Assembly (NCBI GenBank): GCA_024653875.1
Contig: JANLHE010000192.1
Coordinates: 565 to 64,564 of the forward strand
Length of the DNA: 64,000 nucleotides
Reading direction: 5' to 3'
From: Acidobacteriota bacterium
GTDB taxonomy: Bacteria; Acidobacteriota; Vicinamibacteria; Vicinamibacterales; SCN-69-37
Of this stretch, positions 5,233 to 38,218 are shown piece after piece. Numbering within the stretch: position 1 is the first letter of the stretch; each line of letters begins with the position of its first letter. The translations under genes and the position numbers were made by a program. Under the pieces are notes generated by a model. It did not search any database and had not been told where the DNA came from. It worked only from the letters and a program-made list of their open reading frames with translations.

Positions 5233-6969
5233 ATGCCACTCGACTACAGCATCCCGCTTCAGGGCCAAGTGGCCCAGTTCGAACCCCTAAAGATCATGGG
5301 CGACATGACGCGCCTGCACGCCCAGCGGCAGGAGAACGAGATCAATCAGATGCGTATGGGGGAGTTCACCCGCGAGCGCACGATGAAGGACGCCACGATG
5401 AAGGCGCTGCAGGGATCTGGCGGCGACCCGAGCAAGGCCATCAGCACGCTCCGATCCCAAGGCTACTGGGAAGCGGCGGACAGCATCGACAAAACACTCC
5501 GCGAGAACCGCAAGGCGATGGCCGAAGAAGTCAAGACCCAGAACGCCAACCGGGCCGATGGGCTCGGACAAGTCACACAGATCATGCAGGCGGTCAAGTC
5601 CGCCGATGGCTACAAGGCCGTGCTGCCGACCGTGCGCTCGATTCTTGAGAAGACCGATCCGAACCTATTGTCGCAGGTTAAGGACGAGTACGATCCTGAG
5701 TTCGTCTCACAAGCGACGACATGGGGGATGAAGGCCAGCGAGTATGCGACGATCCGCAAGGAAGCGGCCGAAGCGTTGGAGAAGCTCGCCGAACAGCCGC
5801 TGAAGGAGATCGAGCGGCACAACAAGTATCTCGCCGAGGGCGCGAAATACCTCTCCACGGTGGACACGCCCGAGGAATGGACGGACACGATCAACGGCAT
5901 GCACGAGATGGGCTTCCCGGCCGCGACGCTCGAAATGCTAGGGCATCAGTTGACACCCGACAACGTGGAACAGGTCAAGTTGCTGGCCGGAGGCAAACAG
6001 CTGGAACCGGGCACGTTCGGCAGTTACCTGACGCAGTTGGCGAAGGAACGGAAGGTGGACGTGACCGACCTGAGCACGCAAACGATCGAGGGCGCGCGCC
6101 AGCGGTGGTCCGCATCCGACAACATGCCCCGAGGGGAAGCCGTGCAACCGGGCACGTTCCAGTCGTTCGTGCGTGCGAAAGCGAAGGAACTCGGCGTCGC
6201 GCCAAGTGCGCTGAACAGCGAGCAGCAGTTGGGGATCCGCAACGCGTGGGGCGCTGAAGGTGCGTCCCTGGCGCAGATCGGCGCGGCCGAACGGTGGAAG
6301 GAAGATCAACTCGCGCGTATCCGCAGAGAGCGCGCGGCCGATCTCAGCCAGTCAGTGCCTGCCGAGTTCTGGGATGGGGAAATGCGACGGGTCGAGGAAT
6401 CGTACCGGAAGCAGTTGCCCGCTGGCGGCGCGCCGGCGGCGCCTCGTAGCGGCGGTTCTCCGATTGGCCCATTGCCGGACATCTTCCAGTCTCAGCCGTC
6501 GCGTGTGGCGCCGATGCAGATGCCTGGACCGGTGCGTGGGCTCCCTGGTGGAGGGGGACCGCCCCAGGGCGGCGTGAATTTAGGATCGTTGTCTGGCCGC
6601 GGCCCGGCACCCTCCGGGCCTCCACCGCAGGCCCAACCGCTTCAGCGGCCTCAGATGTCCGCGCCACGTCCGAGTGGCCCGCCGGCGCCGCCGATGAGCG
6701 CCCAGGTGGACACGACGCGCATGGGATCGTTGAGCGCGCCGCCCGCGCCAGCGCGCCCGTTCGCTCCGGTCCCGCAGTCGCCCCCGATGCGACCGGAACC
6801 GTCGAGCCCGCGCGCCGCCGCGCCAGCCGCGGCGCCGTCCGCGCCGGACCAGATAGTTCGTTTGTTGGAGAAGCGCGCGCCAGGGCAATATGACCTGGCT
6901 GATGGCAGTTCCTGGTTCAAAGATCCGACAGGATCGATTCGCCAACTCAAACCTGCCGGCCGCCGATAA
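5233..6969 (+). CDS. Hypothetical 578-aa protein, helical N-part and Pro-rich C-part; probable internal virion protein
   Basis: The ATG at 5233 lies 3 nt after the upstream TAG and is in frame with track ORF 5098..6969. The C-terminal 170 aa are rich in P/A/G/S. Confidence 0.5.
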   Translation: MPLDYSIPLQGQVAQFEPLKIMGDMTRLHAQRQENEINQMRMGEFTRERTMKDATMKALQGSGGDPSKAISTLRSQGYWEAADSIDKTLRENRKAMAEEVKTQNANRADGLGQVTQIMQAVKSADGYKAVLPTVRSILEKTDPNLLSQVKDEYDPEFVSQATTWGMKASEYATIRKEAAEALEKLAEQPLKEIERHNKYLAEGAKYLSTVDTPEEWTDTINGMHEMGFPAATLEMLGHQLTPDNVEQVKLLAGGKQLEPGTFGSYLTQLAKERKVDVTDLSTQTIEGARQRWSASDNMPRGEAVQPGTFQSFVRAKAKELGVAPSALNSEQQLGIRNAWGAEGASLAQIGAAERWKEDQLARIRRERAADLSQSVPAEFWDGEMRRVEESYRKQLPAGGAPAAPRSGGSPIGPLPDIFQSQPSRVAPMQMPGPVRGLPGGGGPPQGGVNLGSLSGRGPAPSGPPPQAQPLQRPQMSAPRPSGPPAPPMSAQVDTTRMGSLSAPPAPARPFAPVPQSPPMRPEPSSPRAAAPAAAPSAPDQIVRLLEKRAPGQYDLADGSSWFKDPTGSIRQLKPAGRR

Positions 6970-6981
6970 GGACGTTTCCTG

Positions 6982-9900
6982 ATGGCGTTCCAGAACTTCG
7001 GCCTGTTGGGCTCGACGATGGGGGGCCTCACCCGTCGTCTGTCCGCACGTACGCCGACTACCTCACGGCTGACGCCGTTCAAGCCGGTCTCGTCGCATGA
7101 CGACGAGGAGGACGATCCCTACCAGATCGTGCGGTTCAAGCCGGTGGCCAGCCATACGCAGGAACCGCCCGAAGAAGAGGACCGCTTCCAGATCACGAAC
7201 TTCACACCGCTGGGCCAGATGACACCGGCGCCGAGTCATCGCGTGGACCCGTTGGCCCTCCTCAAGATTGAGCCGAACGTCGCGGCCACCAAGCAGACCG
7301 ATCAGGACGACACCGGCGACCTTGGCGCGGCCTGGAAGCGGTTCCAGACAAAGTTCCCGTCTGCCGCGCAGGCGATTGGGTATGTGCGCTTCGGCGATCC
7401 CGCCCTGATGGACAAGAAGAAAGTAGACGGCTGGGTCAACTCTGAGCGCGGCATTGAAATCAACCCCAGCCGACTGTCAAGGGATTCCGATCTGGAATCG
7501 TTGATCGCGCACGAGGTGACACATCTACTGCGTGACGACGGGGACGCCGAAGGGCGCGCCAACGCTATCGAGAAGGCCTACAAAGTCTCAATGCTCCCTA
7601 CGATGCGGCCCGTGAGTTCGCACGGCGCCTCCACAAAGCCGAGCACAACCAGGACGCCGATTTCCAACAAGGATGATCCGCTCCGGGTTGTGAACTTTGT
7701 GCCATTCGAGCGCAATCCCATAGCGATCGGACCCGCGCAGCCACGGCCGATGTCCATGTCGGACCTGATGCGCGCGGAGATGAACAAGGCGCCGCTTCAA
7801 GCTGGCGCCATAGTGGATCTGACGGTCCCTGACCGTGACCCCCATTTCGACGTAAGCGGGTCGCTGCCCATCAAGACACCGCAACGCCTGTACATGACGC
7901 CGGGAGCGAAGCCCGGCGATGATCCGACCTTCTCGCCGGAGATGCCGAAGCCTGACGCGCCCTTTACGCCAAAGGGCGCGAAGGTCCCAGAGATGCTCAG
8001 TCGCGGTGTCGTCTCAGGCGTGTCCTCGCTGGCGGCCGGCGCCGGCGGCATGCTGCAGGCGGTCGCTGCGGAGGGGAGCGCGGCGGAACGTCACGGCCAG
8101 GCGCTGGTCGAACTCGACAAGAAGATCCAGAAACTCGCCCGGCCGGCCGAACGCTACCTCGTCGATGTGTTCGAGAATCCGGAACTGGCGAAGGACCCGG
8201 AATGGTGGGCGTACACGGCCGGCACGACGTTGGGCTCCATGGTGGGATTCATGGTGCCCGCGCAGGCGGGAGCGATGATTGGGGGGCGCCTTGCGGTAGG
8301 GGCGGCGGCCCTGCTGAGTCGAACCGCTCAAGCCAGAGAGCTCTTTATGGGCACCGGCTTTGTGCTGGGCGGCGGCGTGGTTGAGGGTTTAATCGAAGGC
8401 GGAAGCGCGTTCAACGACGCGATCGCTGCCGGCAAGTCGAAAAAAGAAGCGGGCGAAATCGCGGCGTCTGTGGCGGCCTTGAACGTCCCGCTGATTGCCG
8501 GGACGGCCGGATTGGGCTACCTGCCGCAGTTGTTCAATGCCGGTGGGGCGAAGTCTGCCGCCAAGCGAACAATCCAGTGGTTCTCTGGCGGCATGATGGA
8601 ATCAGGGCAGGAGGTAGGACAGCAAGGGATCTCCAATCGGGCTGCTGGGCGTCCAATCACTGAAGGGATGGGCACGGCCGCTGTCGGAGGGTTCATCGGT
8701 GGCGGCGTGGCGGGTCCAACGATCGGTGCCATGAACACCGAGGACTCGAAGGCCAGCGCGCGCGGCACGCAGGACCCAGGCCAGACGCGGTTCTACGAGA
8801 ACATGACGGCGAACCTGATGACGCCCCCGCGGCCGCCGTCTGGCCCGACCTCGCCTGGGCCTGTGGCGCCGAGCGTCGCACCCACCCCAGCCGCCCCAGA
8901 GATCGTCACCTTCACACCGGCCGACAAGGTGAAGGAACCAGCAGTTTCGCCGGATGTTTCCCGTGGAACGTCACCTGATCCGGCAGTCCTGCAGCAGCAG
9001 GCCGAGCGGTTCAGCGATCTGCGGGCCTTGGAAGCGCAACTCAAGGACACGAACAGCCCGAAGCGCCGGCAGGAGATCGAGTTCGAACTGACCGGCATCC
9101 GGCGCCATTACGAGGACACCTACCAGGCGATTGAGCAGGCCGGCGTGGATCCGGTGCAGGTCCGGCACACGGTGGAGCAGGGGCAGCCCGAGGCGCCGTC
9201 GGAGCCCTACAGTTACTCGACCACGCAGTTCAACCTACCGGAACCGGTGGCCGAGCGCGTACTGGACTTGGGCCGGAAGATTCCTGATGTGGACCTGGCC
9301 GAGGATGGCCGGGAAACCGAACCGCACCTGACGGTGAAGTACGGCCTACACACCGAGGACGTGGAGGAGGTCCGTGCGGCGCTGGCCGACATGAAGCCGT
9401 TCAAGGTGAAGCTGGGCGCGACGTCGTTCTTTCCGAATGGGGAGTCAGATTCCGGCGACGTGCTGAAGGTGGACGTTTCTTCCGCGTACTTGAGCCTGCT
9501 GAACAAGCGGTTGGCGAAGGCCCTGGACCACTCGGACACGAAAGCGTACAGCCCGCACGTGACCATCGCGTACCTCAAGGCGGGACGGGGCGAGGCCTAC
9601 ACGAACGACGACGCCCTGAAGGGCACCGAGATCCTCGTGGACCGGATCACGTTTGGCGGCAAAAATGGCCAGCGGGTCGAGATTCCCCTAGGTACGCAGG
9701 CGCAGCCAGTGCCACCTCAAGAGTTTCAAACTGGACAGCAGGCGGCTAAGGAAGAAATCGCTCTATCGGATCAACAATGGAAGGCTGCCACTGATCGGTG
9801 GGTCGCAGCGAGAAGAGACTTGGAGTCTGGAGCTATTTCCCCAGCGCAATTCGAGGCTGAACAAGCACGCTTCTTGGCATTGACAGACGATTTATCCAGA

Positions 9901-18900: not shown

Positions 18901-20841
18901 GTGCCGTTCCAGACGAAGTTCGGCGAGGTGCCTGGCGGGTACTTCCCCATCAAATACGACCCTGAAGCGGACCCGAAGGCGTACGCGCACAACGTCAAAG
19001 AACTCGCCGAGCAGATGATGCGAGGCCAGACCACGTCGAGCACCACCCGACGTGGCTTCACTCAGGCCAGACAAGAGGTCGTCAAGAACCGCCGGATGCG
19101 TCTGGACTTCAGCACGATCTGGCAGCACACCGCTGACGTGATTCACGACCTGACACATCACGAGATGTTGATCGACGTGAACCGCATCCTGCGGCACCCC
19201 AAGGTGGCTACGGCAATCCGTCAGCACTACGGGATGCCGGTGTACCGCGAACTCCAGGCGTCCCTCCAGGACATTGCCGCCGGGGACGTGCCGGTCCAGC
19301 ACCAGGGGGAGCGCGCCCTTGAGTGGCTCCGACAGGGTACATCGATCGCGCGTATGGGCTGGAACCTGATGACCTCGGCGGTGCAGCCGTTAGGCCTCAC
19401 GGTGTCCGTGGTTCGTATCGGTCCGAAATGGGTGGCGCGTGGGGTCGCCCGCTGGCTCGGCGATGCCGCGCGCATGGAGAACACCGTCTCGCAGATACAC
19501 AAGCAAAGTGCGTTTATGCGCCTGCGTCACAAGACGCTGGAACGCGAAATCCGCGAGATCCAGAGCCGGATTCAGCCACGTGGGGCTTGGGCCTTGTCTG
19601 CGCTCGGCCGCAGCGTGGCCGGCGGCGCTGGCGCTCGTGCGGGCCATGAGATTGCGTCGAAGTACGCCGCAGTTGAGGACTCGTATTTCTGGTTTATTTC
19701 GCGGGCTCAGATGGTGGCTGATATCCCGACGTGGCTGGGCGGGTATGAGAAGGCCCGGGCGCAGGGCAACGATGAGAAGCGATCCGTGGCGTTGGCGGAC
19801 CAGGCCGTTATCGACTCGCAGGGGTCTGGGCACATCAAGGACATGGCGCACTCTCAGCGCGGCACGCCGTCGCTGAAGTTGTTTACCCAGTTCATGGGCT
19901 ACTTCAGCGTGGTCTACAACCAGGGGTCTGAGGCCATCGGCCGCACACGGTTGAGGAACCCGGCATCGATCGGACGTCTCGCCGTGGACCTGTTGATGCT
20001 CTACACGGTCCCGATGGTCTTGGAAGAGGCGCTGCGGGCCGCCATTTCCGGTGGCGATGACGACGATGACGACTTGCTGGTCAAATTTGCCAGAAGTCAG
20101 GCGGCGTACTTCTTGAATACCGTCGTGTTCGCTCGGGAATTGGGCGGCGCGGTAGAAGGGTATCGGTATAGCGGGCCTGCCGGTGGAGGCGTGTTTGATG
20201 AAGCCGCCAGACTCATCACGCAGATCGGACAGGGCAAAGTGGACGACCCACTGGTGAAGTCACTCAACAACACGGCGGGTATCGTGTTCCACTATCCGGC
20301 GACGCAAGTGGAGCGGCTAGTGCGGGTTGCGCTGGCGCTCAAGGATGGCACCGCTACCCCGTCGATGCTGTTTCGGGCCACGGCCGGCAACGCCTCTGAA
20401 CGGCCCGACTTGTCGGCCGCGGCTCGCACGGTGCGATCGGGTGAGCAGCAGCAGTCGAAGCGCGCCCAAGAGGCCGTGGCGGCCTCGGTGGAAGCGTTCT
20501 TCCAGTTGCCACCGGCACGGCAAACACAGGATGAGATTATCCAGCGCACCAGGGCATTAGCTAAGGCGCTGTATGCCGATCCGGACGTGCGAGACGACAA
20601 GTTCAGCGACTTGCTCACTAATCACCGGGTGGGCGTCGCGCGCGGCCAGAAAGACCAAGTGCTCAATGCTGTGCTGACGGCTGGCAGCAACGCGCAGAAA
20701 TTGGCGGTCCTGGCGGCGGCTAGCGAGAAGATGTCGCCAGACGACTTCAGGGCGTGGGTGAAGAAAACCAGGCCACTCCAGGTGGTCTCAAGCACCGTGC
20801 TCGACCAAGCGATGGCAGCGGTGAACGCGCGCGCGCGATAG
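6982..20841 (+). CDS. Giant polyvalent protein (4,619 aa) with multiple enzymatic modules; probably virion-packaged effector
   Basis: Uninterrupted ORF. Motifs read in order: HEVTH (nt 7510), a hydrophobic block (7990-8735), HLTV and HVTI (9325, 9556), GGPGSGKST (11191), YHGT/GSYFT (12496, 12568), EEIQSDWH, HELAH (14761) and HEYGH (16429). Confidence 0.8.
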   Translation: MAFQNFGLLGSTMGGLTRRLSARTPTTSRLTPFKPVSSHDDEEDDPYQIVRFKPVASHTQEPPEEEDRFQITNFTPLGQMTPAPSHRVDPLALLKIEPNVAATKQTDQDDTGDLGAAWKRFQTKFPSAAQAIGYVRFGDPALMDKKKVDGWVNSERGIEINPSRLSRDSDLESLIAHEVTHLLRDDGDAEGRANAIEKAYKVSMLPTMRPVSSHGASTKPSTTRTPISNKDDPLRVVNFVPFERNPIAIGPAQPRPMSMSDLMRAEMNKAPLQAGAIVDLTVPDRDPHFDVSGSLPIKTPQRLYMTPGAKPGDDPTFSPEMPKPDAPFTPKGAKVPEMLSRGVVSGVSSLAAGAGGMLQAVAAEGSAAERHGQALVELDKKIQKLARPAERYLVDVFENPELAKDPEWWAYTAGTTLGSMVGFMVPAQAGAMIGGRLAVGAAALLSRTAQARELFMGTGFVLGGGVVEGLIEGGSAFNDAIAAGKSKKEAGEIAASVAALNVPLIAGTAGLGYLPQLFNAGGAKSAAKRTIQWFSGGMMESGQEVGQQGISNRAAGRPITEGMGTAAVGGFIGGGVAGPTIGAMNTEDSKASARGTQDPGQTRFYENMTANLMTPPRPPSGPTSPGPVAPSVAPTPAAPEIVTFTPADKVKEPAVSPDVSRGTSPDPAVLQQQAERFSDLRALEAQLKDTNSPKRRQEIEFELTGIRRHYEDTYQAIEQAGVDPVQVRHTVEQGQPEAPSEPYSYSTTQFNLPEPVAERVLDLGRKIPDVDLAEDGRETEPHLTVKYGLHTEDVEEVRAALADMKPFKVKLGATSFFPNGESDSGDVLKVDVSSAYLSLLNKRLAKALDHSDTKAYSPHVTIAYLKAGRGEAYTNDDALKGTEILVDRITFGGKNGQRVEIPLGTQAQPVPPQEFQTGQQAAKEEIALSDQQWKAATDRWVAARRDLESGAISPAQFEAEQARFLALTDDLSRANEAPLGAPALATPFAQMSREEQNVAVSPLVPDAASVEPSTTQPEWPVVELPRTDKAQSAPQAKPGRFLVDAKAGTMATAPKGARPGIGQVLVRYSDTGKQTVLQVGKKVAPRDLRKLKALERPVPPVVAPTVPASQREHFDQLLKDARQNGYEGDDKTLEQLYLQKLDEARLANDGATLASEDADSSRELLVAISKMGGIGLEAEGEAGMRGELETMLEGLNRHAGIIRRGARAGQRLPASFRRAGGLPGAPNIITRSGGRPLDTVLESIHEDPRWEHRFESLSDFTQAIDDAIRIETGTTAAPAAAYGPRLDATLEMLGVAPGTDWWEPGRIIVTPHRQGAADEANERAAIRGLNARRDTLQQDYEAQFGRVVNDDNMRELLGAHSPDRRWGNLNAVRSSSGAAVRQVFRQILDEPMDPTRDAVLLTAGGPGSGKSTSAGEDPSFFAVFDSTLHNYEQAKALIEQVKASGRVAVVRYVRRNPVEAFMDGVLTRALDPSNGRPVSIKSHAEKHVEGRETIARLIGEYADDLQVPIVLAESTPSGLKPIDDLESAVEEARVYNDVDALRADIETALRREIASGRQGLTPELAARLGLRPEDRPAVAGDGQPEARRGDQERPAEGLQPAPLAADPTPVSAAPPVRSKAVSPARTEDILATGEIQPRLPGDVGAVRDQEVADAKLELKRADPDDFSLSAQAVDAGQPRLSEPDDSDSSPAYKAAYAAYETAHDRFQPFKQDYENRTISPDVYLREAKAFDAAKDALDAAERAERAARRAARKPAEAPRQSFSAKSLQSVFGITATEAEAAVAIAEAMDLDTDKILLTAGGVPGKGALEQPGQQGTKAFKKWFGRSVVVDTEGPRRVYHGTSGPKPISAFKESVSGLFGRGSYFTESAEDADNYAGNKLVKLKDGSVRTSGRSAIVPVYLQIEHPFEMDGRDTWQDLFEVVMGRRPKNDDAEMPSPAQARALQAAMVAQGHDGIVIKNFEANLTEDFTTHYVVFSPEQVKSATGNQGTFDPKNPNILYQEAPVNAPKLSKWYYSNISKALATWQPKGTAAQLLAHLQKFKGANEEAETIGFGAWLKSQEKVTRAEAQAWLGEHQIHVQDVVRRSRGTDDQQEARSERYMQALQVLERHNLDVASEEANDPPIALIHREERDDRGELKALIAEDIKALPQEAQDAWDVVEEQERLAASKDLKYAAYQTPGGTGYREVLLTLPASATRTVWRVIDRNNNHIIAKFDNYEEAAKLADEKDLAVSEKQDVPAKDTYQSSHWDEPNVLAHVRMNDREVDGQRVLFVEEIQSDWHPALRKHLAAKAAGQLTTKVPDAPFKGAGWKKLALKRALAMAAEGGYDGLAWTTGSMQQDRYDLSKQAHEISAFNRGDGTFDFMVRAKDTNRTHDISKVARDQVSEHIGKDLAERVLKQPAGEWQGYTGLDLKVGGQWAENLYDRELPNLANDIVRKYGVKAGTIELPNTNKVMAYSGPSNVTGDDLDKLIKVSRGLGNSTISPITGREAGHPVERASVTKQAQDIRAYMQAGHSFVEAMNTHGSPMMAGMVGGKMVDEDRGVSVHHLPLTQQMREDVRDNGLPLFQGAKAAVEFAEGGKAIIRALERPDVSSPAHELAHVARRFLLDRNVATEDRLGISDEDIATAETWAGAANGVWGREAEEKFARGFERYLQIGKAPTTKLQALFDKFATWLTDIYRDLKGSDIDVEISAPMQAVFDKLVTRRTAREQRDAAPERQSKPAPTKARASTPTPVSAEPVTGTGDAGAELTFNKRNRRRGGLTWEDVVGQNQTLRVSQTTKANVYPQPEYAALIDGGMEPVVAHIVKQVYDAIAVKPQTTAPTDADLQAYIAGVNRVMDGTLAWANNKDAIRKWANAQVRTARAMQGTPTSLSDLVDVPTLSLSVYPESKQGLSDALRNEARLIGGRRVLGALHAGYSETARATKAVAGGWPAKQEAWQRQGYKVVSSAEAVQVKTGERYVSGGKETVHYLEINRRGFHDVASAEAAEARKAAFKPWLLLKKSGRIEGEFDTKADAEDAARAAVKRESKAIDVRGTAVTEAERTGPPRREPGQNISSDVLLETFEFKGINFGNWLKGKGGNEAERQLHLNHAYDAFADMADILGIPPKAISLNGLLGVAFGAQGSGKNAAHFVPGVNEINLTRTQGAGTVAHEYGHALDHYFATQAGLAGYPEPFLTEHVSHPGTTGYNRAGGKRTAPDTLRPEIAEAFRVIVSSMNRVLESGAQAETRLLMAGTQALKSVNGWLGQIKRDFTSAGVAESAFDALAERIRTLDLGDGKVAVGNAQLSPAVAALRDLYKSAGGSRAYSLDSIKSLQSNVDYLAYLKSDAIAGRAHTPQTVSTDYSRQASALDQEKGGKAYWSTNLEKFARAFDAFVRDRLAARATRNTYLSRDGQPATWEPQGAERIAINEAFDTLIGEFQVTPDTNVLYQEAPPTASELEQIRARRAALVSELGATLRGRAGMGIDFDALELVVDIIKSYLDEGIVRFKDAALAFRRDYPMGADLDDYFESAWQEATGETHLVADALASPETETDIAVAPETALATKASELSKTRRTKQDVIDDLSDALKDLRQTIRSGGVQMREARVPYALIAATAKEQVAAAIVRDLRPAEALATVRPLVTKATEAAARGEFDKAGDLEHEALSALALYREQQRVVKDIDARVRRARLLGTKSAQQRLGLAGQEMYRAPVNAILDGYSFERFGRKALDKRASLLEFIEKATEENMPVDIPAAVREGANRVPYQELTVGEFVEVTDTLDHLLHLSGLKNRLLKSTSTRTFNEQMDDLAASIAAHSRGARRTALEPHLASNQIGRGMAGFAAWQRKLGSLIREMDGGKDGGPMWEAVMRPINASADDETVRQEAAAVAFADTNKTFTTDDKVDLSKPMEIPEIGDSLTRAARIIVALNWGNPGNQQRLMSGFDWSESQVQAILDTLTEKDWTFVKAVWAHINSYKAEIVAKQERVFGVAPEMIEGVPFQTKFGEVPGGYFPIKYDPEADPKAYAHNVKELAEQMMRGQTTSSTTRRGFTQARQEVVKNRRMRLDFSTIWQHTADVIHDLTHHEMLIDVNRILRHPKVATAIRQHYGMPVYRELQASLQDIAAGDVPVQHQGERALEWLRQGTSIARMGWNLMTSAVQPLGLTVSVVRIGPKWVARGVARWLGDAARMENTVSQIHKQSAFMRLRHKTLEREIREIQSRIQPRGAWALSALGRSVAGGAGARAGHEIASKYAAVEDSYFWFISRAQMVADIPTWLGGYEKARAQGNDEKRSVALADQAVIDSQGSGHIKDMAHSQRGTPSLKLFTQFMGYFSVVYNQGSEAIGRTRLRNPASIGRLAVDLLMLYTVPMVLEEALRAAISGGDDDDDDLLVKFARSQAAYFLNTVVFARELGGAVEGYRYSGPAGGGVFDEAARLITQIGQGKVDDPLVKSLNNTAGIVFHYPATQVERLVRVALALKDGTATPSMLFRATAGNASERPDLSAAARTVRSGEQQQSKRAQEAVAASVEAFFQLPPARQTQDEIIQRTRALAKALYADPDVRDDKFSDLLTNHRVGVARGQKDQVLNAVLTAGSNAQKLAVLAAASEKMSPDDFRAWVKKTRPLQVVSSTVLDQAMAAVNARAR

Positions 20842-31417: not shown

Positions 31418-31665
31418 GGCGACTCGCCGCGTGGCTTCGGCGCGTGGCCGATTGGCTGGATACTGAAACGCATGCTGAAACGATTGTCCCGAACGGGAAC
31501 GCCGTGCCCGATCTGTGCAGCACGCCCCTGTCCATTGTCCCGAACGGGATGACCGGGCGGCCTTGCGGTATCCCCGCACAAACACCGCAAACGCCGCACA
31601 CCCGCGTCAGCGCCTGGGGCGTGGACGACACGATACAGGAGCGACATGGCGACCAAACGATCTGA
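31414..31665 (+). CDS. Doubtful 83-aa ORF; the region may instead be regulatory
   Basis: GTGA overlap start, in frame with track ORF 31228..31665. It is full of DNA repeats (see 31463-31549) and its composition is unconvincing. Confidence 0.2.
   Translation: MRRLAAWLRRVADWLDTETHAETIVPNGNAVPDLCSTPLSIVPNGMTGRPCGIPAQTPQTPHTRVSAWGVDDTIQERHGDQTI
31463..31549. repeat. Repeat cluster: 2x CTGAAACG (12-bp period) followed by 2x ATTGTCCCGAACGGGA (51 bp apart)
   Basis: Exact copies at 31463/31475 and at 31483/31534. Each 16-mer contains the inverted repeat TCCCG-AA-CGGGA. The cluster lies about 100-180 nt upstream of the metallophosphoesterase gene. Confidence 0.7.
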
Positions 31666-32551
31666 TCGTGTGACCACGAAAGTGGGTCGCAAGTGGGCCA
31701 TGCGCGAACACGCCCGCAACATCCACGTCATCACCATCAAGTTGGACCGCGTGGGCGACTCGCAAGCCTGCCTCCTGCAATCCGATGTCCATTGGGACAA
31801 CCCCCACTGCAAGCAGGACTTGTTCTATCAGCACCTGGACGAAGCGTTAGCGCGTGACGCCCCGGTGCTGGACAACGGCGACTTCTATTGTGCGATGCAG
31901 GGGAAATGGGACAAACGCGCCAACAAAAACGACCTCCGGCCGGAGCATCAACGCGCCGACTACCTTGATGCGCTCGTGTCTACGGCGGCGGAAAAACTGA
32001 AACCCTATCGCAGCGTCCTGACAGTGCGGGGTCAGGGCAACCACGAAACTTCCGTGGCGCGACACCATGAGACCAATCTCTGTGAGCGCCTCACGGAGCG
32101 CATCAAAGCCTACGGGAACACGCCGGTTGCGCTGGGGGGCTATTCCGGGTACGTGGTGTTTGTGGTGGAGCTGCACAATGGAACGCGGGTGCCCTTCAAA
32201 ATGCATTATCTGCACGGGCACGGGGGCGGCGGGGCCGTGACGCGCGGTGTGATTCAGACGAACCGGCACGCGGTCTATCTGGCCGACGCCGACATCATTT
32301 GGACTGGGCATTCACATGACGCTTGGCAGGTGCCGATTGCCCGCGTGCGTTTAAATCAGGACAACACGAAGATCGTCCACTCGAACCAGTACCACCTCAG
32401 CACGCCCGGCTACAAGGAAGAATGGCAGGACGGGTACGAGGGCTGGCACGTCGAACGCGGGGCACCGCCGAAACCCACAGGGGCCGCGTGGCTCACGTTC
32501 AAGTATGCGTCCACCGCGCACGCCACGTTTGAGATCACCGAGGCAAAGTAA
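31646..32551 (+). CDS. Calcineurin-like metallophosphoesterase
   Basis: AGGAG SD. Motifs in order: SDVHWDN (DxH), NGDF (GD), GQGNHE (GNHE), HGHGGG and TGHSHD (GHxH). Confidence 0.7.
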   Translation: MATKRSDRVTTKVGRKWAMREHARNIHVITIKLDRVGDSQACLLQSDVHWDNPHCKQDLFYQHLDEALARDAPVLDNGDFYCAMQGKWDKRANKNDLRPEHQRADYLDALVSTAAEKLKPYRSVLTVRGQGNHETSVARHHETNLCERLTERIKAYGNTPVALGGYSGYVVFVVELHNGTRVPFKMHYLHGHGGGGAVTRGVIQTNRHAVYLADADIIWTGHSHDAWQVPIARVRLNQDNTKIVHSNQYHLSTPGYKEEWQDGYEGWHVERGAPPKPTGAAWLTFKYASTAHATFEITEAK

Positions 32552-32720
32552 ACATCTCCACGGCTGAAGCCGGGAGCTTTCCACCTAGGCCGCGAGGCCT
32601 GGCAGTTCTGAGGCTGGTTTACAGGCAGCCTGAGCCCGAGACGCGATGTTCCGGGCGGCGTTGAAATCGGCGGATATGGAGTGGTCGCAATGCAGACAGC
32701 GAAATTCGGCTTGGCTCTTT
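32540..32720 (-). ncRNA. Candidate omega-RNA (reRNA) overlapping the tnpB 3' end; extent is a guess
   Basis: By analogy with TnpB systems. The hairpin CTCC(A)CGGC-TGAA-GCCGGGAG at 32555-32575 lies 10 nt beyond the tnpB stop. No covariance model was run. Confidence 0.3.
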
Positions 32721-33673
32721 CGGTTGCCCTTCTCACAGTGGCCGCATTGACTACAGGTGCGACTCGTGTTGCGGGGATCGACGGCGACGACACGCACGCC
32801 CGCCAGTGCCGCCTTGTACTCGACGAAGGCCCTGAGTTGTGCAAAGGCCCAGCCGCCCTGTCGGTTGCGTTGCTTCCGCCGAACCGTGGCCCGCTCGCGG
32901 ATATGCGTCAAGTCTTCCACGCCGATCCCGCGCGCCGTGTCTTTGGCGGCCTGAACAATCTGTTTACTGATGCAGTGGTTCTCGTGCCGTCGGAATCTCG
33001 ACTCCTTCTTTGCGATTCGCTTCAGTTTCTTTTTTGCTCCCCGCGTGTTCCGTCGTTGCAAGGCGCGTCGTTGCTTCGTGTGCTTCCGCCGGACGCGCTC
33101 GACAGCCTCGCCGGTGTGCGTCGTGCCGTCACTGTCGGTCGCCAAGTTCACGATGCCAAGATCCACGCCAAGGAAATCAGCGGGTTCAATCGGCGCACCG
33201 TCAGGAACAGTAATGCTCGCGTAGAGGTAGAACTGCCCATCGCGCAGGACCAGATCGACCTGTCCCTTCATGCGGTCAAAGCGTTGCCGTTGGTACTCGC
33301 CGTAGATCAAGGGCACCAACTCCCGGCCGTCCAATGTCAGCAGGCTCACGGTGTCCATGCCTTTGAAGGACATCAAACGTTCGTCATACGTCATCGCGCC
33401 ATCGGGCCGGAAGACGGGGCAGACCGTCTTGTCACGGGCGAAGTACTCGACGGCCTTGCCGATGGCGCGCACCGCCATTTGACTCGACAGTCCGAACTTC
33501 TCCCGGAGTTGGTAGTACGTCAGCCGATGGATGCTCGGTTGACTCCGCAGGCCCGCCTCGAAGCCGACGCGCGCGGCATAGGTGGCGGCGGCGTTGAAGG
33601 CGCGCATCGTGGCCCGCAATTGCGCGGCTTGCTTAGCGGTCGGCAGCAGGCGCAATTGCAAAGTCAGAACCAT
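32585..33673 (-). CDS. tnpB: TnpB RNA-guided endonuclease (RuvC-like plus zinc ribbon), 362 aa
   Basis: Internal Met (MVLTLQLRLLPT) of track ORF 32585..33826. RuvC contexts GVDLGIVNLATDSDG, IGVEDL and SADFNAARNI. Zinc ribbon CSQCGHC...CLHCDH. Confidence 0.85.
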   Translation of the reverse strand: MVLTLQLRLLPTAKQAAQLRATMRAFNAAATYAARVGFEAGLRSQPSIHRLTYYQLREKFGLSSQMAVRAIGKAVEYFARDKTVCPVFRPDGAMTYDERLMSFKGMDTVSLLTLDGRELVPLIYGEYQRQRFDRMKGQVDLVLRDGQFYLYASITVPDGAPIEPADFLGVDLGIVNLATDSDGTTHTGEAVERVRRKHTKQRRALQRRNTRGAKKKLKRIAKKESRFRRHENHCISKQIVQAAKDTARGIGVEDLTHIRERATVRRKQRNRQGGWAFAQLRAFVEYKAALAGVRVVAVDPRNTSRTCSQCGHCEKGNRKSQAEFRCLHCDHSISADFNAARNIASRAQAACKPASELPGLAA

Positions 33674-33679
33674 ACGGAT

Positions 33680-33709
33680 ATTGTAGGACTTATACTGTCC
33701 GTAAGTCAA
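33680..33709 (-). promoter_or_regulatory. Near-consensus sigma70-type promoter for tnpB: TTGACT-N18-TACAAT
   Basis: On the minus strand, TTGACT is at 33709-33704 and TACAAT at 33685-33680. The -10 ends 6 nt before the tnpB ATG (33673), which implies a very short leader. Confidence 0.5.
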
Positions 33710-33777
33710 CCCACCGACCGAGAGGGGCGACTCTCCTCCCCACAGCTTAAGCTGGGGGTTTCCGTGTCGTCCATGCG

Positions 33778-34185
33778 ATGAGAATCCACGCGCAGCGACG
33801 GTCGCACGACTGCGGCGTGGCGGCATTGGCGTCGTTCATCGGGACTGCCTACGAGGACGCCTATGTGGCAGCAGCAGCGGCGTCTCCGCGCTTCCTGCAA
33901 CGGCAAGGGTTGACCATCAAGGAACTGCTGCGAATGTCAGCGGCCTTCGGGCGGCCCTTGGTGCAGCTCCATTGGCGCAAGGTGGACGTGGATGAGCATG
34001 TCGGGATTCTCGGGGTGAACTGGCACAAGTCCCAATGGAAGCGGCACGGGGCCACGGGGCATTGGGTGATTCTGCGGGCCGGCACCATCATCGATCCTTC
34101 GGGGCCGTCGTTTGACGACGCCACCGACTACCTGGTGACAAACAAGGGCCGCGTGGGGACGCTGCTCATGGAGGCCATGCGATGA
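33778..34185 (+). CDS. Papain-like cysteine peptidase, C39-like
   Basis: Track ORF. HDCGVAALASFIG gives the Cys context and GATGHWVIL the His context, as in C39-type peptidase domains. Confidence 0.45.
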   Translation: MRIHAQRRSHDCGVAALASFIGTAYEDAYVAAAAASPRFLQRQGLTIKELLRMSAAFGRPLVQLHWRKVDVDEHVGILGVNWHKSQWKRHGATGHWVILRAGTIIDPSGPSFDDATDYLVTNKGRVGTLLMEAMR

Positions 34186-35027: not shown

Positions 35028-35252
35028 CGTCCGATTGGCGGGGCGCTAGGGCTGCTACCGTGCCATTGGTGACACTGTGTGAACTATTCGGAATTGCCGA
35101 AGGGTTGCCCGCGCGAGATTGGGATCGTAGTCCTGCTACGATACAGGTGGTTCGTCTAAACCTTAAGGAGTCCGCGTGTCCTAAACTGGAGTCCTCGGCT
35201 GTAACTGACTGTTAACACATGGCTTCTGGTGAGGCCTCTCGCTTCACACGGC

Positions 35253-35287
35253 GGTGGTCGCAGGTTCGAGTCCTGCAGCGCCCACCA
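35253..35287 (+). other. tRNA 3'-end fragment (T-arm, acceptor 3' strand and ACCA) = probable attP core
   Basis: GCAGG-TTCGAGT-CCTGC-AGCGCCC-A-CCA. No D-arm or anticodon arm lies upstream. It sits 140 nt from the integrase stop, and direct repeats (CTAAAC..GGAGTCC x2, 35156-35194) lie upstream. Confidence 0.55.
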
Positions 35288-35427: not shown

Positions 35428-36663
35428 CTAAAATGTCGTCCTCGTGCGGTGCCGCCGGCGCGCCAAGCACGCGGCACAGTGGCGATACTTGGCCTGCGCC
35501 GTGATCGGGACCCGGCAACTCGCGCGCCAGCACTGGCCTGGAGACCACGGAACCCCGGCGCGCTGGGCCGGCAGGACTGGGCCGGCGGCGGCCGGCGCCG
35601 CGGGGAAGGTCTGCCCGAGGCGCGCGCCTTTCTGCTCGAGCGCACGTTGCATGGCGCGCATGACGTACCGCTCGGTCGTCTGGCGGTTCCCGTGGCGCAT
35701 CAGGGCCTTCGCCAGGTCGAGATCGTCGGTGAGGTCGAAGACAACCGTGCCGAAGGAGTGGCGCAGGTCGTAGGGCCGCACAGGGGCCGTCACGCCGGCG
35801 CGGCGCGCGGCCAGCGTGAAGGACTTGTAGAGCGAGGACCGACTGAACGGCCCCCAACACTTCAAGCGGGCGAACTCGCGGAAGGCGTCCACGGCGGCCG
35901 GCATCAAGGGCAGCACGCCGCCAGGCACCCCGGCGCCCTTCTGCCGCCGCGGGAGGCGAATCAGACCCCGCTCGAGGTCCACGTCAGCCGACGTCAAGTG
36001 GACCAACTGGGCGGGCGGCAGGCCGGAGTAGGCCAGGACCCGGACCCGCGCCTTGGTTTGGGATCCGCGCGGCCGCGTCTGCCCGTGCACAGGGCGTCCC
36101 ACGTCGGGCATGTGCGCGATAATGCGCTCGATCGTGGGGTAGTCCAGGTCCCGGGCGACCGGGTCGGGCTCGCGGATTTCATCGACATCCCGCACCGGAT
36201 TGGGCGCCCGCTTGCCGTCGAGGACGGTCCAGAGGTTGCTGAGGGCCCGCAGCCGCTTGTTGATGGTGCCGGGGCCAACCGGCCGGGGATCGTGGGCACT
36301 CCGAGGGGCGATCGCCCAGCGGTCCCGTGCCTCGCGGATATCGATCGGCCGAATGGCGTCCCGCGGCCGCGTGCCGAAGAGGGCAATCCATCGGGTGATG
36401 TCGGCCACGCGCTGGGCGTACGTAGGCATCGTTTGGACCGCGCGCAGGTAGCGCCGGGCGTCGCCTTCGAATGTGCCCTGGTTGGCCCGTTGCTTCCGCG
36501 TGATCCGCAGGTGCGCCTGTTGATCCGCGCGCCAGGCGACCATGACGGACATGGGCGTGTGCAGTGGAAAGGTCTGTTTGAAAGGCGTGAGTCCACGGCC
36601 TCGAGAGACGACGGCCCGCCAGCCAGCGCCGTACCGGTAGATGCCGCGGGCGCCTGTGGGCAT
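35428..36663 (-). CDS. int: Tyrosine recombinase / phage integrase
   Basis: Track ORF. Contains YDLRHSFGT (the xxLR box) and HGNRQTTERYV (His plus the catalytic Tyr context). Has an N-terminal SAM-like region and lies next to the tRNA fragment. Confidence 0.85.
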   Translation of the reverse strand: MPTGARGIYRYGAGWRAVVSRGRGLTPFKQTFPLHTPMSVMVAWRADQQAHLRITRKQRANQGTFEGDARRYLRAVQTMPTYAQRVADITRWIALFGTRPRDAIRPIDIREARDRWAIAPRSAHDPRPVGPGTINKRLRALSNLWTVLDGKRAPNPVRDVDEIREPDPVARDLDYPTIERIIAHMPDVGRPVHGQTRPRGSQTKARVRVLAYSGLPPAQLVHLTSADVDLERGLIRLPRRQKGAGVPGGVLPLMPAAVDAFREFARLKCWGPFSRSSLYKSFTLAARRAGVTAPVRPYDLRHSFGTVVFDLTDDLDLAKALMRHGNRQTTERYVMRAMQRALEQKGARLGQTFPAAPAAAGPVLPAQRAGVPWSPGQCWRASCRVPITAQAKYRHCAACLARRRHRTRTTF

Positions 36664-37187: not shown

Positions 37188-37279
37188 CCAGTCTCCTTTA
37201 AAAACTGATCCAGTAAGCGATTCACGATTTCAGCCAAGACGCTGTTCCTCTGCGTGAGGGCCTCGAGCTTCGCGTGCAT
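37184..37279 (-). CDS. Doubtful 31-aa ORF (MHAKLEALTQRNSVLAEIVNRLLDQFLKETG) overlapping the repressor 3' end
   Basis: Its stop overlaps the lipoprotein ATG (ATGA). GC3 switches in favour of this frame near 37280. Alternatively this reflects a frame change in the repressor gene. Confidence 0.2.
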   Translation of the reverse strand: MHAKLEALTQRNSVLAEIVNRLLDQFLKETG

Positions 37280-37880
37280 GGCTTTCGATGAGGAGGCCGA
37301 GTTGGATGCAGGCTTCCCGTAGCACGCGAACGTCGTGTTCGAGGGTGGTAATTCTGTCGGCGTCGGAACGAGTCTGATCGTGCGATGGCTCACCGTTGGC
37401 GCCCTCCTGGATATTGCGCGCAAGGGAGGCCACCGGTGCAAGGGTTGATCTGTCTGCTGGGGAGGTGCCATAGGGGTGCCCGTCCTGGGTGTCGTCGTGC
37501 GGTGACGTGGACGACAAAGCAGACAGCATGACTGTGACAGCCGCAGTCGCACGTGCCTCGACCTGATGTTGCACGTGGGCGTGATAGTCCGGATATGCCC
37601 GGATCAAGATGTCATCGACCGTTACGCGCAACGCGACGGCCACCGCCATCAGGTTGGGAAGCGCGAGGGCGCCGCGCCGGTCGTTTTCCCAGTCACTGAT
37701 GATCTGCGATTTCCGGCCCAACGCCTTTGCCAGTTTCACTTGCGTGGGGAAGCCTGCCTCTTTCCGCAGTTCAGCGATGACCTCCCCTAGCGTCGGCACC
37801 CCCAGAGGATAGGTCTTGGAAAAAAAAGTCGCAAGGGCGTAAATGCTTGATTCGCTAGAGGTTACGTGCGTTGCCTTCAT
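37230..37880 (-). CDS. CI-like repressor, XRE-family HTH (no S24 peptidase domain seen)
   Basis: HTH segment TQVKLAKALGRKSQIISDWENDRR. Transcribed divergently from a Cro-like gene across a 71-bp operator region. Confidence 0.7.
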   Translation of the reverse strand: MKATHVTSSESSIYALATFFSKTYPLGVPTLGEVIAELRKEAGFPTQVKLAKALGRKSQIISDWENDRRGALALPNLMAVAVALRVTVDDILIRAYPDYHAHVQHQVEARATAAVTVMLSALSSTSPHDDTQDGHPYGTSPADRSTLAPVASLARNIQEGANGEPSHDQTRSDADRITTLEHDVRVLREACIQLGLLIESHAREARGPHAEEQRLG

Positions 37881-37909
37881 GGGCGCCCCAAAGGTGACTG
37901 AAAAAGACG

Positions 37910-37938
37910 TTGACGCATAACGTGATAGCGCGTATAAC
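37910..37938 (+). promoter_or_regulatory. Promoter for the cro-like operon: TTGACG-N17-TATAAC, with flanking operator repeats
   Basis: TTGACG at 37910-37915 and TATAAC at 37933-37938. AAAAGACGTT is repeated at 37902 and 37942. Inverted repeat ACGTT-N7-AACGT at 37907-37923. Confidence 0.55.
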
Positions 37939-37951
37939 AGGAAAAGACGTT

Positions 37952-38218
37952 ATGCCCCTCACTCGAAAACAACTTCAAGCCCTGCGCGCCACGGTGCCGG
38001 CCACCGGCAACCGGGTCCGCCTGGCCCGCAAGCTGATGGGCTGGACCCAGGTGGAACTGGCCGCGGCCGCGGGGTTGCAGCAGCCCTACGTTTCGGCGGT
38101 GGAGCGGGGGCGGTATTCCGTGGAGGTCCGTAACGCGTGGCCGCTGGCGGTCGTCTTCGGCTGTTCCATTGAAGACCTCTTTTGCCCCGATGGCGTGAAG
38201 GCCAAGGTCGCGTCATGA
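37952..38218 (+). CDS. Cro-like XRE-family HTH regulator (88 aa)
   Basis: ATG at 37952, in frame with track ORF 37910..38218. HTH segment WTQVELAAAAGLQQPYVSAVERGR. AGGA SD-like sequence upstream. Confidence 0.7.
   Translation: MPLTRKQLQALRATVPATGNRVRLARKLMGWTQVELAAAAGLQQPYVSAVERGRYSVEVRNAWPLAVVFGCSIEDLFCPDGVKAKVAS

Follow-up and report, generated by a model that had tools for sequence, protein, structure and literature searches.

Transposons of the IS200/IS605 family, and within it the IS1341 group, are among the mobile elements already described in detail (PMC13565253). Members of the IS1341 group carry a single tnpB gene and no tnpA, have neither inverted repeats nor a target duplication, bear hairpins at both ends and insert at a tetranucleotide target (PMC13565253). 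We find the same organization at positions 32548..33777 (minus strand) of a 64,000-nucleotide (nt) stretch of DNA from an Acidobacteriota bacterium (contig JANLHE010000192.1, positions 565 to 64,564; hereafter the window). With a probability of about 0.8, this segment is a complete tnpA-less insertion of the IS200/IS605 family, belonging to the IS1341 (TnpB-only) type, which entered a temperate phage genome by transposition. It differs from the described IS1341-group members in its target, TCAT (sister subclades have TCAC or TCAA), in its TTAC right end and in a lineage met mainly in phage-like contigs. A literature search for a TnpB paired with a TCAT target-adjacent motif (TAM) found no such paper.

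For the ends, the closest described system is IS608 of Helicobacter pylori. The two cleavage sites of IS608 are placed differently: the left one is outside the element, 19 nt before the left hairpin, and the right one is inside it, 10 nt beyond the right hairpin; each is read by the tetranucleotide just 5′ of the hairpin (PMC3201880). The element described here shares the 19-nt left spacing, the right site inside the element, the extra-helical T of the hairpins and the tetranucleotide reading, and its right-end pair AAAG:TTAC is the left-end pair of IS608 (PMC3201880). IS608 differs in carrying tnpA, in its TTAC target, in its TCAA right end and in its right spacing of 10 nt, compared to a TCAT target, a TTAC right end and 8 nt here.

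For the protein, the reference is the TnpB of ISDra2, an RNA-guided nuclease (PMC8612924) for which a transposon-retention model exists (PMC10055086). Domain set and catalytic motifs are shared with ISDra2, and so would be the origin of the guide RNA in the tnpB 3′ end plus the right end, a TAM equal to the target site and a guide taken from the flank (PMC8612924, PMC10055086); the predicted TAM itself is another one and the sequence similarity is distant. Phage homing endonucleases such as T4 SegF and Mob (PMC13565253) are likewise encoded by a nuclease gene lying between two conserved phage genes. Like them, the TnpB described here is predicted to cut the allele lacking it and then to be copied in by recombination during co-infection; unlike them, it would recognize its target through an RNA rather than through the protein, and it lies between defined transposon ends that make TnpA-mediated moves possible. 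Finally, TldR proteins, which are nuclease-dead TnpB-like repressors, are also TnpB-family proteins carried by temperate phages (PMC10705468). Here the catalytic triad and the transposon ends are intact and the predicted guide derives from the flank.

Ends of the element and the empty site

The extent of the element was defined in two ways, by the limits of conservation among relatives and by insert-free alleles. Four copies at different locations (the window, L001, L002 and L003), aligned together with their flanks, share a conserved block that starts at TCAT (33781..33778) and finishes at GTTTAC. The left limit of conservation lies about 105 nt 5′ of the tnpB start codon and the right limit 34-38 nt past the stop; outside TCAT and GTTTAC the flanks of the four copies are unrelated. 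The ends of several relatives were set by eye, as automatic end detection had mis-called them. The features at the two ends are as follows.

32548..33777, minus strand: whole element, 1,230 bp, no terminal inverted repeats, no target-site duplication
33778..33781, minus strand: left cleavage and target site TCAT, the predicted TAM; it reads ATGA on the plus strand, which is the start codon of gene B and, in the empty site, also the TGA stop of gene A
33759..33762, minus strand: left guide tetranucleotide GAAA (G_L), immediately 5′ of the left hairpin
33738..33758, minus strand: imperfect subterminal palindrome of the left end, CCCCCAGC-TTAA-GCTG(T)GGGG, its T being extra-helical; TnpA presumably binds here on the top strand
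32580..32577, minus strand: right guide tetranucleotide AAAG, directly before the right hairpin
32556..32576, minus strand: imperfect subterminal palindrome of the right end, CTCCCGGC-TTCA-GCCG(T)GGAG, its T being extra-helical; compensatory changes in 8/8 pairs
32548..32551, minus strand: TTAC, the right cleavage site, which closes the element
31646..32551, plus strand: gene A, 301 amino acids (aa), a widespread phage protein whose last codon and stop were rewritten by the insertion
33778..34185, plus strand: gene B, 135 aa, weak peptidase C39-like match, its ATG abutting the left end of the element

Three insert-free relatives, L101, L102 and L103, carry homologues of genes A and B joined by ...AAATGA..., with the element absent. 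The empty-site form in L101 and L103 is ...gaggc(c/g)aaATGAt..., in which the TGA stop of gene A overlaps the ATG of gene B; the junction reads ...actgaggccaaATGAtcgcc... in L101 and ...gctgaggcgaaATGAtcatc... in L103. Deletion of 32548..33777 from the window leaves ...accgaggcaaa/ATGAgaatc..., a junction identical in form to that of the insert-free relatives. Because its removal restores the insert-free junction, the element measures exactly 1,230 bp and sits 3′ of TCAT with nothing duplicated. The comparison of L101 and L103 with the window thus gives the insertion 3′ of a fixed tetranucleotide, without duplication or terminal inverted repeats, that characterizes the IS1341 group. TCAT is common to relatives at independent sites. 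A blastn search of the locus against 50,697 phage records found no match.

The spacing at the ends follows IS608. TCAT precedes the foot of the left hairpin by 19 nt. The right hairpin begins 8 nt past the tnpB stop codon, and the last base of TTAC is found 8 nt beyond that hairpin; both ends thus combine a subterminal palindrome with a distant cleavage site. Covariation across the family suggests that these sites are read by tetranucleotide pairing. Among 22 unique left ends, 21 have a TCA-N whose last base can pair with the base directly before the hairpin (T:A in 13, A:T in 4 and C:G in 4), the lone exception being a doubtful call. The right ends listed are TTAC or TTAA in 55 of 56 cases and TTAT in one; AAAG accompanies TTAC, and AAAT accompanies TTAA in four unique listed cases (L074, L091, L035 and L076).

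A complete Y1 transposase (Pfam Y1_Tnp, 4.2e-36) adjoins tnpB in a more distant member of the family, L083. Because the ends obey the IS608 rules and a Y1 transposase stands beside family members, the element is best assigned to the Y1-dependent IS200/IS605 family and, within it, to the tnpA-less IS1341 group. As expected for that group, Y1 TnpA is the transposase of the family and is absent from the TnpB-only members. In the window, no Y1_Tnp or resolvase Pfam match was found in open reading frames (ORFs) of at least 80 aa, and tblastn with a Y1 probe gave no significant match. The IS607 family, whose members have a serine-recombinase TnpA and ends free of IS605-type hairpins, was ruled out given the lack of a resolvase domain in the window, the IS608-type ends and the Y1 TnpA of the relatives.

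An intermediate stage was also encountered: in L052, a Y1 TnpA is reduced to a 64-aa C-terminal remnant (374-568, Pfam 2e-12), which immediately precedes a tnpB whose product is 51% identical to that in the window. This locus captures a step in the loss of tnpA that leads to TnpB-only elements.

The earlier note on this DNA, made from the letters alone, had proposed a self-promoted, tnpA-less IS200/IS605-type TnpB element with subterminal hairpins, in a window devoid of Y1 transposase, and both statements agree with the analysis. Its upstream palindrome at 33738-33758 was recovered as described. Its downstream hairpin exists as well, with coordinates shifted by 1 nt (32576..32556) and a distance of 8 rather than 10 nt from the stop. 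Of the proposed limits 32552 and 33777, the latter is exactly the left end, whereas the former falls 4 nt inside the true right end at 32548. The comparison with insert-free relatives that the note had recommended as a way to define the ends and the TAM did fix the boundaries, through L101 and L103, with TCAT as the predicted TAM.

TnpB, its promoter and the predicted guide RNA

The coding and RNA features within the element, together with the adjacent guide, are listed below.

32585..33673, minus strand: tnpB, 362 aa, ATG at 33673 and stop TAG at 32587..32585
33680..33709, minus strand: promoter TTGACT-N18-TACAAT, its -10 box ending 6 nt before the tnpB ATG
32548..32662, minus strand: modelled part of the predicted omega-RNA scaffold, 115 nt, four helices (covariance model R1)
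32656-32652/32638-32634, minus strand: scaffold helix 1
32631-32626/32616-32611, minus strand: scaffold helix 2
32600-32596/32591-32587, minus strand: scaffold helix 3
32576..32556, minus strand: scaffold helix 4, which is the right-end hairpin
32528..32547, minus strand: predicted guide segment TTTGCCTCGGTGATCTCAAA, which lies in the flank and runs antisense to gene A at the 3′ end of that gene; length taken from ISDra2

TnpB is identical to the NCBI protein P0001, annotated as 'MAG: transposase [Acidobacteria bacterium]', and more than 5,000 homologues were found. Pfam recognizes an OrfB_IS605 domain (8.6e-13) and a Cas12f1-like_TNB domain (2.2e-22). In an alignment of 36 homologues, D171, E253 and D336 are invariant, as are C307, C310, C326 and C329, so the protein has the RuvC D-E-D triad split by a zinc ribbon that is expected of a TnpB nuclease. 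The best matches among solved structures are Cas12f proteins (9nzq, 1.9e-26), with ISDra2 TnpB far more distant (8exa, 1.3e-7). In alignments to solved Cas12f, the three RuvC motifs correspond to GVDLG, IGVEDL and SADFNAARNI, and the zinc ribbon to CSQCGH...CLHCDH. The Cas12f proteins are no more than the nearest relatives of solved structure. A type V-F CRISPR-Cas12f system, which would have an adjacent CRISPR array, a tracrRNA and adaptation genes, was rejected, with no repeat array in 25-42 kb and a 362-aa protein lying between transposon ends. A longer, 413-aa version of the tnpB ORF starting at 33826 was also rejected, as it overruns the left end of the element and the homologues begin at 33673. 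On the opposite strand, a 366-codon ORF (32681..33781, plus strand) was rejected as a gene: it arises from reading tnpB antisense in codon register, and it failed the criterion based on GC content at third codon positions. It ends on the TGA of the junction ATGA, and such frames stay open in GC-rich genes.

The promoter was found once by a pattern scan of 4 kb. Since chance predicts one match per 4-kb region, the lone match proves nothing by itself. Conservation is more informative: TTGnnn-N16-19-TAnnnT ends 6-7 nt ahead of the tnpB start in 30 of 50 unique relatives, compared to 2 of 1137 control windows. Such conservation speaks for a genuine promoter and for a leaderless transcript of tnpB. 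The promoter spacer also contains an inverted repeat, GGAC-N7-GTCC (GGAC at 33700..33697 and GTCC at 33689..33686, minus strand), abutting the -10 box. A stem of at least 4 pairs is found at this place in 14 of 16 close relatives (at least 59% identity) compared to a shuffle mean of 3.4, and the changes are compensatory (GGAC/GTCC, GGATA/TATCC, GGAGG/CCTCC and GGAGT/ACTCC). The repeat may act as an operator or may fold as a hairpin, either in the DNA of the left end or in the RNA of read-through transcripts. In IS608, too, a second structure may form 3′ of the left hairpin (PMC3201880).

At the 3′ end of tnpB, four helices are discernible by eye in an alignment of 43 relatives. A 12-sequence MAFFT alignment with a hand-written structure served as seed for covariance model R1. 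In the seed, 91% of the cells pair, compared to 76% in shuffles and 32-52% in slid controls, and 13 pairs show compensatory changes. Model R1 has one full copy in the window (32662..32548) and a partial match on the left hairpin, through its right-end hairpin part; the left palindrome is itself conserved in relatives. Beyond the window, R1 matches the 3′ end of tnpB at more than 60 other loci. In the model-derived alignment, 94% of the cells pair (29-46% in slid controls), compensatory changes are found in 23 of 24 pairs, and compensatory cells number 381 compared to 89 in shuffles. No R1 helix is broken in the window copy. On the basis of this model, the 115-nt, four-helix covarying structure is what would be expected of an omega-RNA scaffold.

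Other RNA searches were less telling. A single-sequence fold of the 3′ 250 nt was no better than shuffles (z = 0.51), so thermodynamics alone is uninformative for the omega-RNA. Rfam gave no match at gathering thresholds over the whole window, and a permissive Rfam scan of the locus returned only a chance-level CcsR1 match outside the element.

The sequence past TTAC is the first non-conserved stretch in all relatives and is unrelated between copies, as expected of a flank-derived guide. We therefore predict that the guide begins with TTTGCCTCGGTGATCT at 32547 and reads TTTGCCTCGGTG..., antisense to the 3′ end of the neighbouring gene. In the window, the guide has an exact match only at its own position and no other close match. 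A further observation concerns L001: the right end and guide-RNA region (32548-32650 compared with L001:7018-7120) is 98% identical in DNA while the TnpB proteins are only about 85% identical, which indicates either a very strong constraint on the RNA and the end or recombination between elements.

Most of what the earlier note had said about this part of the element was borne out. The intact 362-aa TnpB with its RuvC contexts and zinc ribbon is confirmed by the Pfam matches and the invariant residues, with no inactivating RuvC substitution. The promoter 6 nt before the ATG is present at 33709..33680 with a geometry conserved in relatives, and the suggested covariance-model search for an omega-RNA was productive, albeit with an alignment that is model-fitted. 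The predicted guide is indeed antisense to the 3′ end of the neighbouring gene. The proposed guide ATGTTTAC... has to be corrected: because the relatives and the insert-free alleles put the right end at TTAC (32551..32548), its first 8 nt belong to the conserved right end and the guide start is shifted by 8 nt.

Phage setting, mobility and rival explanations

Pfam matches of its ORFs identify the window as a temperate phage genome. Apart from C5 methylase, peptidoglycan-binding domain protein and S8 peptidase genes, it contains the following features.

59529-61531: small and large terminase
37230-38218: divergent pair of CI-like and Cro-like helix-turn-helix genes
35428-36663, minus strand: tyrosine integrase
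35219-35287, plus strand: 3′ fragment of a tRNA (T arm and CCA end at about 35249-35287, weak tRNA-Sec-like match), between the integrase and the element

No complete tRNA was found anywhere in the window. The tRNA fragment beside the integrase resembles the core of a phage attachment site (attP) and fits an unintegrated or excised phage genome. The element lies about 1.5 kb from this integrase and attP-like region, in agreement with the location near attP that the earlier note had described. Nearly all genes of the window are on the plus strand and tnpB is antisense to them; this orientation follows from insertion 3′ of TCAT at an ATGA stop/start overlap, which makes tnpB antisense to the phage operon. 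A plus-strand ORF at 6982-20841 encodes 4,619 aa with coding-like composition and is very large for a phage of about 68 kb.

From the biology of ISDra2 and IS608, tnpB would be transcribed as a leaderless mRNA from the left-end promoter, and the 3′ part of the transcript would be processed to an omega-RNA made of the 32662..32548 scaffold and the adjacent-flank guide TTTGCCTCGGTGATCT.... TnpB loaded with this RNA would then cut copies of the locus that lack the element, 5′-TCAT followed by TTTGCCTCGGTG..., with TCAT as TAM. Such targets may be the donor joint left by excision or a co-infecting phage without the insert, and recombination with the occupied copy would restore or spread the element, as in the retention model (PMC10055086). 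The occupied site would be protected, because TTAC rather than TCAT precedes the guide-matching sequence. For moves to new sites, a related autonomous element in the host would have to provide a Y1 TnpA in trans.

Relatives of the element, further ones of which were drawn from IMG/VR and metagenomes, bear on how mobile it is. Three of the closest (83-86% identity) stand alone and antisense to their neighbours in phage-like contigs, and relatives at 83-87% identity occupy different sites in other phage contigs. More broadly, relatives at 73-89% identity stand alone in other phage-like contigs, each time at another site and mostly in antisense orientation to the adjacent genes. The TnpA signals covary across the family, so selection for transposition appears to continue, and the presence of close relatives at different loci requires transposition; together, the covarying signals and the different locations say that transposition to new sites probably still happens. 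Some relatives have lost parts of their ends. L014, L006/L017/L018, L023, L024 and L036 keep promoter and tnpB, with TCAT near the promoter, and have lost the left hairpin; in L107 both hairpins are missing. The relatives without the left hairpin look like immobilised or decaying copies. L107, which is phage-like (Gp77 and Gp80 domains), has two TnpB-family genes (3001-4143 and 5921-7069), 3 kb apart and on opposite strands.

Several other explanations deserve weighing against a mobile insertion. TnpB and its omega-RNA might be a domesticated phage weapon, kept to destroy insert-free relatives that co-infect or superinfect the same cell, with transposition irrelevant, much as free-standing homing endonucleases of T-even phages bring about marker exclusion. 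The lineage is repeatedly met in phage contigs, the guide targets a conserved phage gene junction, and L014, L006/L017/L018 and L107 have dropped the left hairpin while keeping promoter and tnpB, most of them with the right end as well. We nonetheless consider this unlikely: the window copy keeps both hairpins, both guide tetranucleotides and both cleavage sites, the TnpA-related features covary in a way that implies ongoing selection for transposition, and the different loci of close relatives call for transposition. A weapon function is not exclusive of a selfish one. The earlier note had left open whether the nuclease is domesticated or hitchhiking. The intact IS608-type ends and the closest relatives, alone at different sites in other phage contigs, point to a mobile hitchhiker rather than a domesticated gene; domestication finds no specific support, because this copy keeps every feature needed for TnpA-mediated mobility.

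The lack of tnpA in 64 kb and the existence of relatives with decayed ends would also suit an inert relic that landed once, has no TnpA and no longer expresses TnpB and omega-RNA or has lost their activity. This is improbable in view of the intact ORF with all catalytic and zinc-binding residues, the near-consensus promoter, the right end that is 98% identical to that of L001 against only about 85% for the proteins, and the unbroken helices of the RNA model. That the protein is instead a TldR-like repressor, a nuclease-dead TnpB derivative guided by RNA to regulate a host or phage promoter, has almost nothing to recommend it beyond the existence of phage-encoded TldR proteins (PMC10705468). 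The RuvC D/E/D triad is intact and invariant, and the guide is plain flanking DNA as in mobile elements, with no other close match in the window; membership among TldR proteins was accordingly rejected.

A number of points weigh against the interpretation of the locus as a TnpA-mobilized insertion with a working guide RNA. The source of TnpA for this copy was not found in the 64-kb window (of a 67.7-kb contig). An IMG/VR scan for the exact empty-site target with a match to the guide found no such insert-free allele, and the insert-free relatives mismatch the guide at several positions and may escape cleavage. On the RNA side, the model-derived alignment was fitted to R1 and is hence biased towards the structure, and an independent MAFFT and RNAalifold run recovered the right-end hairpin alone. 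RNAalifold missed the other helices because they are misaligned between subgroups, which is why the hand-annotated seed was built. Because the right-end hairpin also serves TnpA at the DNA level, its conservation may owe something to that role rather than to an RNA. Finally, the 5′ end of the scaffold and the length of the guide are both extrapolated.

The type of element is already common, solo TnpB elements being very frequent, and this copy is an ordinary mobile element that happens to be unusually well resolved.

Insertion at stop/start overlaps

The exact empty site allows the effect of the insertion on the two neighbouring genes to be read. Gene A, a member of a large phage protein family, now closes GCA AAG TAA compared to GCA AAA TGA before: the final lysine is kept through a synonymous change, and the new stop is the terminal TTAC of the element read on the opposite strand (G+TAA). 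The homologue of gene B follows gene A directly, with a 4-nt overlap, in L101 (72% identity) and L103 (67%); in L100 it is found one gene further along (50%). IMG/VR scans for the neighbour proteins A and B found nothing. The original GAGG ribosome-binding site of gene B, within the 3′ end of gene A, is now 1.2 kb distant. Upstream of gene B after the insertion (33769-33781, plus strand) there is no purine-rich ribosome-binding site. A two-codon mini-ORF, ATG CGA TGA, finishes on the gene B ATG; it is found in this copy only and is not conserved in relatives.

Such overlaps recur in the family. Sister subclades target TCAC and TCAA, that is GTGA and TTGA, and all three motifs correspond to stop/start overlaps. 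An exact ATGA overlap can be reconstructed at four sites (the window, L001, L054 and L051), and the start codon of the neighbour is the junction ATG at five independent sites with gene calls, compared to 16 gene starts among 354 ATGA sites of the window (about 4.5%). In a frame table, 21 sites have a clear flanking ORF of at least 100 codons, and in 16 of them this ORF shares its frame with the TAA of the right end. Within this phage, 12 more 4-nt stop/start overlaps between plus-strand genes are unoccupied, nine of them ATGA, the same kind of target.

26858, 28419, 40278, 41106, 42616, 55168, 55353, 60107 and 63464, plus strand: free ATGA overlaps
31166, 43981 and 59529, plus strand: free GTGA overlaps

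Tentatively, and at well below even odds, we propose that this TnpB lineage may be specifically adapted to compact phage genomes and spread between co-infecting phages as an RNA-guided homing element. On such a reading, which we hold with the same reserve, TCA-N would serve as the reverse complement of NTGA overlaps, the TTA(C/A) end would replace the displaced stop, expression would be leaderless and antisense, and insertions would be nearly scarless. The enrichment in ORF length is modest (12 of 18 compared to 37%, p = 0.013) and gene B loses its ribosome-binding site, both of which weigh against adaptation. Adaptation is unproven, because the survivorship of harmless insertions gives the same picture and explains most of the pattern.

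The copy described here is a fully specified, testable case, with exact ends, an empty site, a predicted TAM (TCAT), a 115-nt scaffold and a guide. Its predicted nuclease is compact (362 aa), with Cas12f proteins as nearest solved relatives, and this RNA-guided enzyme is placed like a phage homing endonuclease, between two conserved genes. The locus also provides a checkable idea, namely that insertions of this TnpB family may favour stop/start overlaps, or persist nowhere else, the end of the element itself making good the lost stop at such sites.

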